Shown here piece after piece: positions 21,075 through 24,756 of a stretch of 64,000 bases of DNA (positions are counted from its first letter, which is position 1; each line of letters begins with the position of its first letter). The DNA is taken from the NCBI GenBank assembly GCA_041687695.1, contig JAWLBL010000027.1, positions 63,021 to 127,020 of the forward strand. Reading direction: 5' to 3'. Position numbers and translations under genes: made by a program. The notes under the pieces are model-generated. The model did not search any database, was not told the origin of the DNA, and saw only the letters and a program-made list of their open reading frames with translations. Origin of the DNA: Myxococcota bacterium. Lineage in GTDB: Bacteria > Myxococcota_A > UBA9042 > PHBI01 > JAWLBL01.

Positions 21075-22427
21075 ATGTTCACTCTGGTCATCGAAGACAA
21101 GAACGGCGCCGTCGCCGACGAGTACACGTTCGAGGACGGCGAGTTCCTGATCGGGCGCAGCCAGAGCGCCGACATCGTCCTGCCCTCGGACAACGTGTCG
21201 CGTCGCCACGCGCGGCTGTATACCGTCGACGGCAAGTGCTACATCGAGGACCTCGGCTCGGCCAACGGCGTGTTCGTCAACGGCCGGCGCATCCACGAGG
21301 TCTTCCCGATCGAGGGCTCGGCCCAGATCAAGGTCGGCGACTACTTCCTGCACATCGACAGCGACACGGCCAGCGCCGCGGCGCCCGTCGATCGCGTGCT
21401 GGTCAAGCTGCACGGGCAGAACCTGGCCTTCACCGACCAGGTCTATCGCCTCGAGAAGGCGACGACGTTGGTGGGCCGCGGCAAGGACTGCGGCCTGACG
21501 CTCATCGATCCGAGCATCAGCCGCATCCACGCCAAGCTCACCTTCGAGCGCGGCGGCCGGCTGACCATCGAGGATCTCAAGAGCTCGAACGGCAGCTTCA
21601 TCAACGGCGAGCGCATCACCACCGGGACGGCCGGGCACCGCGATACGGTGCGCTTCGGCAACGCCGACTTCATCGTCGAGATCCCCGAGGCCGCGCCCAC
21701 GTCCTCGCCGACCGCCCGCGGGCGGCAGGCCTCGTCCGCCGACATGGCGGCCTGGGGTGCCCCGCCCAAGAAGTCGCGCACGGGACTGTGGGTCGGGCTG
21801 AGCGTCTTCTTCGTGCTGGTCATCGGCGGCGGCGCGACGTGGTTCTTCTTCGGCGACAAACTGTTCGGCAAGCCGCAGGCCGAGGAGGCCAAGTCGGCGA
21901 CCGTCACGCCCGAGGACGAAAAGGCGCAGAAGGAGGCCGACAAGGCCAAGGAGGAGGCCGAGCTCAAGGCCGAGGAGATCCAGCTCCTGAGCGACCAGGG
22001 CACCGCGGCGGTCAAGGGCCGCGAGTGGGACAAGGCCCTGACCTCGTGGGAGGGCGTGCTCGAGCGCGATCCGCTCAACGAGACGGCCCAGAAGGCCATC
22101 AACCAGATAAAGACCTGGCAGAAGCACCAGGAGACCCTCGAGTCGGCTCGCAAGCTCCGCAAGGACAAGAAGTACGCCGAGGCCGCCAAGGCCCTCCGCG
22201 AGATCGGCGAGGGCAGCGTCTACCACGCCGAGGCGCAAGAGGAGATCGGTCTCCTCGTCGAGATGAAGGGCTCCCTGGTCATGCAAGCCGACGCGATGGT
22301 CAAGTCGCGCGACTGCGACGGCGCCCTCAAGCTCTACAAGGAGGCGGTCGTCCTCGACCCCCGCGACGCGGTCCTCGTCGAGAAGATCAAGGACGTCGAG
22401 AAGCTGCCGGCGCGCAAGTGTAAGTAG
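21075..22427 (+). CDS. tandem-FHA domain membrane protein with C-terminal TPR-like helices
   Basis: Two FHA domains (IGRS..VSRRHA..SANG; VGRG..ISRIHA..SSNG), one TM (LWVGLSVFFVLVIGGGATWFFF), helical TPR-like exported region. Confidence 0.88.
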   Translation: MFTLVIEDKNGAVADEYTFEDGEFLIGRSQSADIVLPSDNVSRRHARLYTVDGKCYIEDLGSANGVFVNGRRIHEVFPIEGSAQIKVGDYFLHIDSDTASAAAPVDRVLVKLHGQNLAFTDQVYRLEKATTLVGRGKDCGLTLIDPSISRIHAKLTFERGGRLTIEDLKSSNGSFINGERITTGTAGHRDTVRFGNADFIVEIPEAAPTSSPTARGRQASSADMAAWGAPPKKSRTGLWVGLSVFFVLVIGGGATWFFFGDKLFGKPQAEEAKSATVTPEDEKAQKEADKAKEEAELKAEEIQLLSDQGTAAVKGREWDKALTSWEGVLERDPLNETAQKAINQIKTWQKHQETLESARKLRKDKKYAEAAKALREIGEGSVYHAEAQEEIGLLVEMKGSLVMQADAMVKSRDCDGALKLYKEAVVLDPRDAVLVEKIKDVEKLPARKCK

Positions 22428-22446: not shown

Positions 22447-22483
<37 letters not shown>

Positions 22484-22524
22484 AGGCGGCTGAGTCTGAG
22501 CCTAGAGGCCGGTTTGGAGTGGGG

Positions 22525-23528
22525 GTAGCCTCCGCTCCGGCCGGCCTCGAGCGTTTTAGTCGCCTTGCGGCGACGAAAACGCTTGACCCCGTCCTCCGCT
22601 GCGGCTGGGGGCTGATATGGCCCGGAACGGGGCGTTCCGGGCCGCGGTGCGTCCCGTACGCCTCGGCGACTGGGCGCAGCCCTTACCTCGTCTCCCAGCC
22701 TGGCAACTTCCTCCGGGAATTAAACACCTAGCCAATTAGCCGTTCCGGGACGACGGGCTCGGCGAGGCTTCCGCCCCGGGGCGGGGCCATCGAACGCCCA
22801 GGTCATTGGTCGTCCCTGGACGAACGGCCTGCCTGGGCTTCCGCCCCGGGGCGGAGCAATTGGACGCCCATACAATTTGTCGTCCCGGGACGACGACGGA
22901 CGCCTGAGCTTCCGCCCCGGGGCGGAGCCATGGAACAAGCAGCCAATGAGTCGTCCCGGGACGACGACGGACGCATGGACTTCCGCCCCGGGACGGAGCA
23001 ATTCAACGCCCATACAATTAGTCGTCCCGGGACGACGACAGCTGCCGGGACTTCCGCCCCGGGGCGGAAAGCAGAATCCAGGTTCTCGTACCGGGACGAC
23101 GGTGCCCGCCAGCCGGGACTTCCGCCCCGGGGCGGAGAGCAGAATCCAGGTTCTCGTCCCGGAACGACGACGACCGCCTTTGGCCCTCCGCCCCGGGGCG
23201 GAGAGCAGAACACAGGTTCTCGTACTGGGACGGCGACGACCGCCTGGGCCTCCGCCCCGGGGCGGAGAGCAGAATCCAGGTTCTCGTACCGGGACGACGA
23301 ACCTTCTCCTCCGCCCCGGCACGGAAGCCGTGAACGCGTGAGCGTCGCATCTAGCGCAGGCTCCCAACTCGAGACACCCACGCCGGCCACCGGCCGGGAC
23401 GCCCCGCGGCCCGGAAGGTCCCCTTCCGGGCCGATATCGGCCCTCCAGCCGCAGCGGAGGGCGGGGTCAAGCGTTTTCGGCGCCGTCAGGCGACCAAAAC
23501 GCTTGAGGCCGACCGGAGCGGAGGCTAC
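22525..23528. mobile_element. ~1-kb non-coding element with ~133-bp imperfect terminal inverted repeats (MITE-like, unclassified)
   Basis: 22525-22656 aligns with the reverse complement of 23395-23528 (about 14 differences by eye). No transposase and no clear target duplication, so mobility is inferred only. Confidence 0.55.
22738..23326. repeat. array of nine 59-71-bp units containing two alternating 16-bp palindromes
   Basis: TCCGCCCCGGGGCGGA at 22770, 22840, 22911, 22982, 23053, 23121, 23187, 23251, 23310 (six perfect) alternates with GTCGTCCCGGGACGAC (perfect at 22879, 22950, 23021; degenerate elsewhere). Confidence 0.92.
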
Positions 23529-23578
23529 TCCGACCGACCCCACGACCCAAATCTGCGCCGCCAGCTTCCCAAGCAAGG

Positions 23579-23978
23579 AGCCCGCGCGAGCGCGGGCGTT
23601 CCAGCTTCCCCAACCAAGGAGCCCGCGCGAGCGCGGGCACTCCAGCTTCGCCAACCCATGAGCCCGCGCGAGCGCGGGCACTCCTAGCGGCGGAGAGCTG
23701 CAACCTGGTGGCGCGAAAGCCCGCGCGAGCGCGGGCACTCCAGCTTCGCCAACCCATGAGCCCGCGCGAGCGCGGGCACTCCTAGCGGCGGAGAGCTGCA
23801 ACCTGGTGGCGCGAAAGCCCGCGCGAGCGCGGGCACTCCAGCTTCGCCAACCCATGAGCCCGCGCGAGCGCGGGCGCTCCTAGCGGCGGAGAGCTGCAAC
23901 CTGGTGGCGCGAAAGCCCGCGCGAGCGCGGGCGCTCCAGCTTCGTCACCCCAAGAGCCCGCGCGAGCGCGGGCACTCC
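23579..23978 (-). repeat. REP-like tandem array (9 copies of GGAGTGCCCGCGCTCGCGCGGGCT) with a 41+57-bp higher-order unit
   Basis: AGCCCGCGCGAGCGCGGGC(A/G)CTCC at 23579, 23620, 23661, 23718, 23759, 23816, 23857, 23914, 23955; spacings 41,41,57,41,57,41,57,41. Confidence 0.92.
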
Positions 23979-24132
23979 AACCGGCGGAGAGCCTTGGCCT
24001 CTCACTCCGCGGTCTTCGGTTCGCCACGGCCACGCTCTCGGCATCCTCGTCGCTCCCGAAACGCAAGAGGCCGAGCCCCCAAGTGGGACCCGGCCTCGGT
24101 GCGGACGGACCGTCCAGACGCCGCGCGGCGGC

Positions 24133-24756
24133 CTACTCGGCGTCGGGCTTGTTCACCTGCTTCTCGATGCGCTCGAGGAGGGCGTCGAAGCCGCTCTTCT
24201 TGACGATCTTGGAGAACTGACCGCGCCAGTTGATGGCCATCGAGACGCCGTCGACGACGATGTCGCCGGCGCGCCACTCGAGCTTGCCGCCGACCTTCAC
24301 GGGCTCGAAGAGGTAGTCGACGTCGGCGGCGGCCTTTTCGCCCGCGACGGTCGTCTTCACCTCGGCCTTGGCGCCGTCGTCGGCGAAGACCGTGTCGCCG
24401 CGGTAGGAGACGGTGAACTGGGCCTTGGGCTTGAAGCGCTTGGCGTAGTTCTTGATGACGAGGCGCCGGAAGAGGGCCTTGAACTTCGCCTGCTGCTCGG
24501 GGGTGATCTCGTCCCAGGTGGCGCGCAGGGTCTTCTTGGAGAAGGCGTCGTAGTCGACCAGGGCGTCGAAGTGGCCGGTGATGTCCTCGACGAGCTTGTC
24601 GCGGGTGGTCGCCGCGTCGACCGACTGCTTGATGACCGCGTAGGCGCGGTCGACGTTCGCCTTGGGGTCGCCCGCGGGCTTGTCGGCGGCGGAGGCGACG
24701 CCGGCGAGGCCGAGGACGAACAGGGCGAGGAGGACGGCGGGGAACACCTTGCGCAT
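24133..24756 (-). CDS. mlaC: MlaC/Ttg2D family phospholipid-binding periplasmic protein
   Basis: Signal peptide; VDYDAFSKKTL..TW..ITPEQQAKF; DVDYLF...WRAGDIVVDGVSMAINWRGQFSKIV; GGAG RBS. Confidence 0.85.
   Translation of the reverse strand: MRKVFPAVLLALFVLGLAGVASAADKPAGDPKANVDRAYAVIKQSVDAATTRDKLVEDITGHFDALVDYDAFSKKTLRATWDEITPEQQAKFKALFRRLVIKNYAKRFKPKAQFTVSYRGDTVFADDGAKAEVKTTVAGEKAAADVDYLFEPVKVGGKLEWRAGDIVVDGVSMAINWRGQFSKIVKKSGFDALLERIEKQVNKPDAE

Follow-up and report, generated by a model that had tools for sequence, protein, structure and literature searches.

The repetitive extragenic palindromic (REP) sequences, together with the related REPINs and bacterial interspersed mosaic elements (BIMEs), are dispersed intergenic hairpins that begin with GTAG, occur as inverted doublets, vary by compensatory changes within their stems and go along with REP-associated tyrosine transposases (RAYTs). 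Palindromes of another sort make up the centromere-like arrays bound by ParB-family proteins, such as sopC of plasmid F, the parS sites and the KorB operators; the DNA-binding domains of ParB and KorB bind palindromes as dimers. Among multi-copy nuclease genes, the mycobacterial DUF222-HNH genes called REP13E12 (the “13E12 repeat”) are listed, in a passage of one study, among the repetitive elements (PMC10589994). Here, we analyze a 1004-bp element in the genome of a Myxococcota bacterium (assembly GCA_041687695.1). It occupies positions 22525 to 23528 of a 64,000-nucleotide stretch of contig JAWLBL010000027.1, the whole of which we call the window, and the original prediction, made from the sequence of this stretch, had described it as a non-coding element framed by inverted repeats, the arms. 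We suggest that it is a gene-less, non-autonomous member of a family of selfish HNH-nuclease cassettes that is acted on in trans by the nucleases of the full copies, a tentative reading to which we assign a probability of about 0.45.

The arms of the element are two copies of an end module that recurs throughout its own genome (7.97 Mb in 63 contigs, each labelled here by C and a number, the window lying on C27). An nhmmer profile made from the copies found 43 of them above 70 bits, with a usual length of 162 nt and with a sharp outer boundary, GTAGCC, common to all; the remaining 41 of its 84 matches were either weak signals from the opposite strand, due to the palindromic nature of the arms, or short pieces of the 5′ end. 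A model built from the other copies places the arms of the window exactly at 22525-22656 on the plus strand (76.8 bits, E 6.5e-21) and at 23395-23528 on the minus strand (87.3 bits, E 3.9e-24), that is, at 85545-85676 and 86415-86548 of the contig. A repeats search of the window itself recovers the pair as the inverted repeats 22519-22611/23442-23534 (93 nt, 89% complementary) and 22619-22656/23395-23432 (38 nt, 89%), with about 14 mismatches and a small indel, which agrees with the count of about 14 differences made originally. Membership of the 43-copy module also bears out the idea that the element is a non-coding derivative of a larger repeated one.

What the larger element contains is apparent from the neighbors of the arms. 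A tblastn search revealed 22 HNH genes in the genome and, besides these, two short matches confined to the HNH domain. All 19 genes that could be assessed are preceded, at a distance of 356-1206 nt, by an arm in their own orientation; the other three are within 309-464 nt of a contig end. Seven of the genes have an inverted arm downstream as well, at a distance of 187-600 nt. Outward-facing inverted pairs of arms occur at eight places, five of which enclose an open reading frame (ORF) that encodes about 390 aa, with an HNH domain at the C-terminus of its product. The original prediction had wondered whether a transposase, a recombinase or a ParB might lie between such arms; the cargo is a nuclease gene, and the N-terminal domain of its product resembles, in modelled fold, the DNA-binding domains of ParB and KorB. 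Seen from the side of the arms, 26 of the 37 not cut by a contig end stand beside an HNH gene in fixed orientation and 11 do not. The latter are eight arms of gene-less pairs (the window pair, a pair of 909 bp on C7 and a group of four on C3, the first pair of which spans 1008 bp), two tandem arms near the contig end of C47 and one divergent single arm on C26; six more arms without a gene are truncated by contig ends. The full cassette, as read from a copy on C33 and from the aligned sequence inside the arms, consists of a G-rich tandem tract, the arm, a spacer of about 110 nt, an AT box, a dyad array, a conserved leader of about 250 nt and the gene, and in one third of the copies a mirrored array, AT box, spacer and arm are added downstream. 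The AT box (AATTAAAC, then 9-10 nt, then AATTAG) is recognizable by eye about 110-140 nt inside most of 40 aligned arms.

Of these parts, the window element retains the two arms, the AT box on the left and an array in which both types of dyad occur; it has no gene and no leader. Its AT box (AATTAAAC-N8-CAATTAG, 22718..22739, plus strand) occurs on the left side only and abuts the first dyad of the array (22740..23329), which Tandem Repeats Finder (TRF) resolves into about five units of 71 bp and then about four units of 64-68 bp, and the right spacer that follows (23330..23394) has neither an AT box nor any similarity to the left spacer. Each unit of the array is made of a palindrome that we call q (TCCGCCCCGGGGCGGA) and of a second one, p (GTCGTCCCGGGACGAC or a variant of it), of which seven q and three p are present as perfect 12-mers. 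A CRISPR array can be ruled out, as the units are tandem copies of one another and have no unique spacers. The interior is non-coding, as originally described, because the GC content at third codon positions (GC3) of its ORFs, 0.65-0.77, is far below the 0.94-0.99 of four neighboring genes. Beyond weak palindrome-driven matches the element holds no convincing remnant of an HNH gene, a leader or a promoter. Since there is no HNH match on this contig and no coding bias in the interior, we take the element to be a gene-less member of the family.

Judged by sequence likeness, the kinship of the gene-less copies with one another is the best support for the original designation of the element as non-autonomous. 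Three gene-less pairs are of like size (1004 bp in the window, 909 bp on C7, 1008 bp on C3), and all three sit between convergent genes according to crude ORF calls. The 64-68-bp array unit of the window recurs only in the C7 pair, in a piece beside an arm at a contig end of C11 and, more weakly, in the C3 pair; it is absent from the gene-bearing copies. In addition, the C3 and C7 pairs each contribute one arm to the group that holds the window arms (support 86/90). Because both the array unit and the arm lineage are common to them, the gene-less copies look mutually related and not like three separate decays. The gene-less form may have arisen once by gene loss and then multiplied, or it may have swapped parts with the two other gene-less copies. 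The proposal of a non-autonomous mobile or invertible element thus stands insofar as this is a gene-less derivative of a repeated cassette; for inversion there is no evidence, no recombinase gene adjoins the element (its neighbors encode FHA-TPR and MlaC proteins), no target duplication was seen, and mobility is something that we infer.

Each of the window arms folds into the two hairpins that had been described. Hairpin 1 lies at 22547..22586 in the left arm (plus strand, 11 + 6 base pairs) and at 23467..23506 in the right arm (minus strand); hairpin 2 lies at 22619..22643 (plus strand, an 11-bp stem with a GGG loop) and at 23407..23433 (minus strand, a 12-bp stem). Their folding z-scores range from -3.8 to -6.4, none of 200 shuffles folds equally well, and the folds are equally strong on either strand, so that a role of the arms as RNA is not distinguishable from one as single-stranded DNA. 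The tenth pair of hairpin 2 is C-G in the left arm and G-C in the right (alignment columns 137/143), precisely the swap from which it had been argued that structure is kept while sequence changes. The family as a whole supports this argument. Among 30 aligned arms, 98.3% of the stem cells pair, and 13 of the 50 stem pairs have been altered on both sides, compared with 4.9 ± 1.3 in 500 shuffles (none of which reaches 13) and with 0-4 in controls whose partners were slid by 1-3 columns. On the GTAGCC strand, the variable cells include 12 G-U and 6 A-C combinations. Hairpin 1 of the left arm departs from the majority of the family on both sides of the stem pairs 28/87, 30/85, 35/80 and 36/79; in total, the left arm has six compensated, one wobble and two broken pairs, and the right arm has four compensated and four broken ones, the compensated changes at 28/87, 30/85 and 35/80 being common to both.

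Divergence of the arms is also low when it is set against that of the adjacent genes. The median distance between cassettes is 0.099 for the arms and 0.514 for four-fold sites of the genes, about five-fold more; in all of 136 pairs the arm has diverged less than these sites, with only a weak correlation between the measures (rho 0.21). Paired arms are mostly not each other's nearest relatives, and the lineage of an arm does not track the subfamily of the protein. Either strong constraint or exchange among copies would yield such a pattern, and we favor exchange plus constraint. The arms are probably structure-forming end modules, acting as folded DNA or RNA and kept uniform by exchange between copies. 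The window pair departs from the general rule, its two arms being mutual nearest relatives among 40 arms (clade support 100/98). Both are divergent copies that are 30 nt shorter than the usual module, the same deletion having removed an inner hairpin and part of a stretch, CCAATTCCTCGCGGACGA, that is almost invariant in the other 28 aligned arms. It follows that one arm has been copied onto the other, or that both derive from one already deleted arm.

The nuclease genes themselves are mostly intact: among 20 loci that were fetched, two genes at contig ends being left out, 19 contain intact genes of 378-431 aa and one is N-terminally short, and dN/dS has a median of 0.36 over 171 pairs and is below 0.5 in 143 of these. 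The proteins form two subfamilies, p and q, about 55% identical to each other. All 19 match the Pfam HNH domain (PF01844) and none matches DUF222 (PF02720) at E up to 10; no transposase family figures among the 11 Pfam families that they match, and no RuvC domain was found in them. In NCBIfam, guided_IscB alone is matched, over its HNH part and with a score of 30.9 bits where the cut-off is 175. An AlphaFold model has a mean pLDDT of 65.9, which rises to about 90 for residues 11-130 and 300-360. In a search of 48,161 Protein Data Bank (PDB) representatives, the modelled N-terminal domain was closest to ParB-parS (6s6h_B, Z 7.9, 122 residues aligned, rmsd 5.0), Spo0J (1vz0_A, 7.8) and KorB with its operator (1r71_A, 7.2; 8qa8_A, 6.2), and the C-terminal domain to the HNH nuclease of phage GVE2, McrA and the HNH of IscB (Z 7.1-7.8). 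Searched by sequence, the PDB yielded only the colicin E7 HNH (E 0.57), and Foldseek gave nothing at E up to 0.001. In the ESM Atlas, the N-terminal 145 residues lie near Myxococcota clusters, in one of which 42% of the members are DUF222 (PF02720) proteins, with 22 of 30 hits in that set. The family is closest to the DUF222-HNH genes, though the Pfam domain itself is unmatched. A ribbon-helix-helix domain was considered for residues 178-246 and set aside, as Pfam RHH_5 matches weakly in four of the 19 proteins and a two-copy complex prediction scored 0.40 against a mark of 0.42. PADLOC recognized no defence family, PHROGs returned generic HNH endonuclease families only, and a plasmid search matched neither the protein nor the element.

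The dyads are tightly associated with the cassettes. As 16-mers they occur genome-wide within 2.5 kb of an arm or an HNH gene in 32 of 33 instances for p and in 15 of 15 for q. Cassettes of the p-subfamily have p dyads in their arrays, and six of the seven genes carry another p dyad within their coding sequence, at +493 to +520; in the q-subfamily, a q dyad lies in the reading frame at +442 to +448 in 7 of 15 genes. We regard the dyads as predicted binding sites of the nuclease, because its N-terminal domain looks ParB/KorB-like and because the type of dyad in the array matches that in the frame of the same subfamily. The arrays of the q-subfamily (for example at loci L034, L035 and L048) contain many hybrid dyads, GTCGTCCC|GGGGCGGA, with one p half and one q half, which fit a dimeric binder with two half-site preferences.

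Outside the arms, 17 of 42 have at least 55% G in the 80 nt beyond the outer end, as against 1.5% of random genomic 80-mers. Short tandem repeats rich in G border the GTAGCC end, on the same strand as the arm, in the window as a (GCG)n microsatellite just outside the left arm (22447..22490, 14.7 copies by TRF), which is the local form of this tract, and elsewhere as (GGGGTGGGGAT)n, (GGGGCGCG)n and (AGAGGGGCAGGGG)n; such repeats could form G-quadruplexes. Short tandem copies of the arm's first 42-53 nt are found just outside full arms (C33:12342-12383, C3:293018-293069, C13:398-449 and C9:2216-2259), and near position 186862 of C2 the outside repeat unit contains the arm's first 24 nt. These copies of the 5′ portion suggest stuttered copying at the end of the arm. 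Arms also stand in tandem in the same orientation, and each of them then brings along its spacer, its AT box and one or two units of dyads. On C3 (C3:293018-295045) three such arms follow one another on the minus strand at intervals of 420-500 bp, and on C47 (C47:29732-30290) two lie 397 bp apart on the plus strand.

In the window, the element lies between two convergent genes, one for an FHA-TPR protein that ends at 22427 (plus strand) and one for MlaC that ends at 24133 (minus strand). This pair is kept in 7 of 11 relatives of the same order, and there the orthologous interval, in which the original prediction had hoped to find empty sites, is shorter: the stop-to-stop gap is 17, 30, 86, 117, 388, 569 or 624 nt, as against 1705 nt here. 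The other four relatives have no FHA gene within 1.5 kb. Three things make up the extra DNA of the window: the (GCG)n tract, the element itself (1004 bp) and a separate tandem array with units of 41 and 98 bp. As the relatives are distant (protein identity 34-52%), the gap shows a gain of DNA in this lineage and not a recent insertion. The separate array (23561-23992) has 41-bp units followed by 3.8 units of 98 bp (97% match) and carries an 18-bp palindrome, GCCCGCGCGAGCGCGGGC, which also clusters away from the arms, at 60.5 kb on C9 (five copies), at 151 kb on C21 (three), on C29 (two) and on C12 (two); it is another repeat family that fills the FHA-MlaC gap. On the minus strand, 24059-24150 gave a weak Rfam match to the myxobacterial small RNA Pxr (30.1 bits against a gathering score of 80, E 0.018), which overlaps a terminator-like hairpin at 24097-24067 just past MlaC and is probably only the terminator of that gene. 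One sequencing run with 6% of the sampled words yielded short contigs that cover the flanking genes and, at less than 90% likeness, 77 nt of the right arm; containing no joints, they are uninformative on presence, inversion and expression.

Among 300 other genomes of the phylum that were sampled, 36 contain homologs of the HNH gene. In several they are multi-copy (for example in G294, G224 and G069, with up to 12 matched pieces per genome and several pieces per gene) and have no arms; at one locus, L063, a perfect 23-nt inverted repeat brackets the gene. A covariance model of the arm had no hit in 29 loci of such homologs, nor in five whole genomes, where an empty answer carries no weight. A 26-nt arm pattern matched neither genome contigs nor metagenome contigs, and a search of genome contigs for related loci with an alignment of the HNH proteins found no relative. 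An 18-nt core motif of the arm occurs at 67 metagenome loci, which we regard as chance matches: a single covariance hit was obtained among them (22 bits, E 0.073), none has an HNH homolog, and the similarity extends over no more than 23-38 nt. The genome also has ten Y1_Tnp genes above the Pfam cut-off (loci L081-L090), several of which share 520-bp segments that are 95-97% identical; they are apparently an unrelated and younger mobile family.

How, then, might the window element have been formed and kept? Nucleases from the gene-bearing copies would bind it, presumably at the dyads, and cut it, and repair of the breaks would copy or homogenize it. Several observations nonetheless weigh against the proposal of a two-ended element mobilized in trans. 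No target-site duplication was detected at the window copy or at the seven other pairs, where the inverted symmetry runs on into the flanks in the form of G-rich tracts. Whether arms always form inverted pairs had been asked originally, and they do not: 14 assessable HNH genes carry the upstream arm only, with no arm within 3 kb downstream, and in 10 of these one-armed copies the likeness to other copies ends about 50-100 nt from the stop codon, from which it follows that two ends are not needed to keep a gene-bearing copy. The 29 loci of homologs in other genomes have no long flanking inverted repeats, so that arms are no general requirement of this gene family, and BLAST found the arm in none of 40 relatives. 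There are no recent duplicates of the HNH genes, the smallest dS of any pair being 0.16, and to our knowledge no HNH nuclease is a transposase. The likeness to ParB and KorB is a lead, since a Z below 8 may reflect a common helical arrangement. Compensatory changes in a DNA hairpin can also come, without selection, from hairpin-templated correction (quasipalindrome mutagenesis). Finally, the window copy itself may be dead, because its arms are the most divergent of the family (at least 0.18 from all others, yet 0.097 from each other) and because the inner hairpin with part of CCAATTCCTCGCGGACGA is missing. Given the lack of target duplication, the predominance of one-armed copies, the lack of young ones, homologs elsewhere without inverted repeats, an arm not found beyond this genome in the collections searched and an enzyme that is not a known transposase, we prefer break-and-repair copying, a homing-like gene conversion, to a cut-and-paste mechanism.

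The last of these objections can be extended into an explanation of its own, in which the window element is a dead relic: a decayed two-armed cassette that has lost its gene and its activity, whose hairpins correct themselves by intrastrand templating and whose arms convert each other. The distance of its arms from every other arm and their closeness to one another, the inner hairpin gone from both, the four broken pairs of the right arm, the missing right AT box and the disappearance of gene, leader and promoter are all in accord with this. The left arm, however, keeps six compensated pairs to two broken ones, and three gene-less elements of like size that share an array unit and an arm lineage fit multiplication better than three decays; we consider the relic unlikely, though well worth keeping in mind. 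Improbable, in our estimation, is the suggestion that the arms are REP-like elements of the host, tolerated or used between convergent genes as bidirectional terminators or as hairpins that stabilize mRNA, the HNH genes being merely adjacent. As in REPs, GTAG is followed by a hairpin, the hairpins are strong on both strands, and the gene-less pairs lie between convergent genes, with the nearer stop codon 98-169 nt away in five of six flanks. But 26 of the 37 uncut arms are found next to an HNH gene in fixed orientation and only 11 are not so placed; the arm measures 162 nt and not 20-40; MlaC has a terminator-like hairpin of its own (24097-24067), and in the window sequence no U-tract follows the hairpins of the arms. 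The idea of a RAYT or REPtron can be discarded, as the ten Y1_Tnp genes lie elsewhere, none adjoining an arm, and blastn of the arms against their ten loci gave no hit.

The invariable position of the arm upstream of the gene and in its orientation (19 of 19) would also fit a structured RNA, be it a leader, a small RNA or a guide-like scaffold for the HNH protein, in which case the gene-less pair would amount to two orphan RNAs. The variable sequence that abuts the sharp 5′ boundary, the strong covariation with its excess of G-U over A-C on the GTAGCC strand (12 vs. 6) and the fact that the protein's only NCBIfam match is to the HNH part of guided_IscB point in the same direction. This explanation is nevertheless quite improbable, for the two strands fold equally well, 356-1206 nt of array separate the arm from the gene, the IscB score is 30.9 against 175 with no RuvC, and arm lineage is not tied to protein subfamily. 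There is also no promoter-like site within or ahead of the window arms, nor anywhere inside the element (0 sites), and Rfam, searched with the window region (E up to 1) and with two full cassettes (E up to 0.1), yielded only chance microRNA-like hairpins and the weak Pxr-like match, although a new RNA would in any event be absent from Rfam. Hardly credible is an invertible switch in which the 130-nt inverted arms flip the interior. Inverted repeats of this length, here 89% complementary, can recombine; there is, however, no recombinase beside the element, no promoter-like site within it, its interior is itself composed of dyad-symmetric units, and between two gene ends its orientation would have no obvious readout.

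Multi-copy chromosomal HNH genes are widespread in the phylum, and the present genome displays their anatomy in a legible form: a sharp end module, dyad arrays with a matching dyad in the gene, and copies that have no gene. Should the nuclease act in trans on the latter, they would offer a simple test system for binding, cutting and copying, and hence for the question of how such genes move; should they be relics and nothing more, the result amounts to the annotation of a lineage-private repeat. In the literature searched, we found no paper that describes such arms, arrays or gene-less derivatives, nor one that describes how such multi-copy HNH genes persist or spread. It is doubtful, but conceivable, that we are dealing with a new kind of prokaryotic mobile element, one whose sole enzyme would be an HNH nuclease with a ParB/KorB-like palindrome-binding domain, whose 160-nt folded ends are abutted by G-rich tracts and which has gene-less derivatives of its own.

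Such derivatives recall the miniature inverted-repeat transposable elements (MITEs), in that a short gene-less copy keeps both inverted ends of a longer gene-bearing element and several such copies, of 909-1008 bp, are found at unrelated intergenic sites. They differ from MITEs in the lack of a target-site duplication, in a parent that encodes an HNH nuclease and not a transposase, in ends that are 130-162 nt long and highly structured, in the prevalence of one-ended gene copies and in the lack of recent copies. With REP and REPIN sequences the arms share the initial GTAG and hairpin, the inverted doublets and the compensatory changes, but they are about five times longer and are tied to HNH genes instead of a Y1 transposase. 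The arrays resemble sopC, parS and the KorB operators, with tandem units of tens of bp that contain a palindrome of 12-16 bp next to the gene of a putatively ParB/KorB-like protein; here, in contrast, the protein ends in an HNH nuclease, and the fold match is a moderate one (Z 7.2-7.9). As in the IscB/omega RNA (OMEGA) systems, an HNH gene is preceded in the same orientation by a conserved structured module whose 5′ boundary adjoins variable sequence, but there is no RuvC or PLMP domain, and the module stands well away from the gene, has a mirror copy downstream in one third of the cassettes and folds on both strands. Like the genes of the present family, the DUF222-HNH genes of the REP13E12 type are chromosomal and multi-copy and encode about 400 aa, with a helical domain at the N-terminus and an HNH at the C-terminus; PF02720 is unmatched here, and structured arms and dyad arrays do not figure in the REP13E12 passage (PMC10589994), with which the comparison is by description only. 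We see in the family described here a structured variant, private to this lineage, of a selfish HNH cassette that is widespread.

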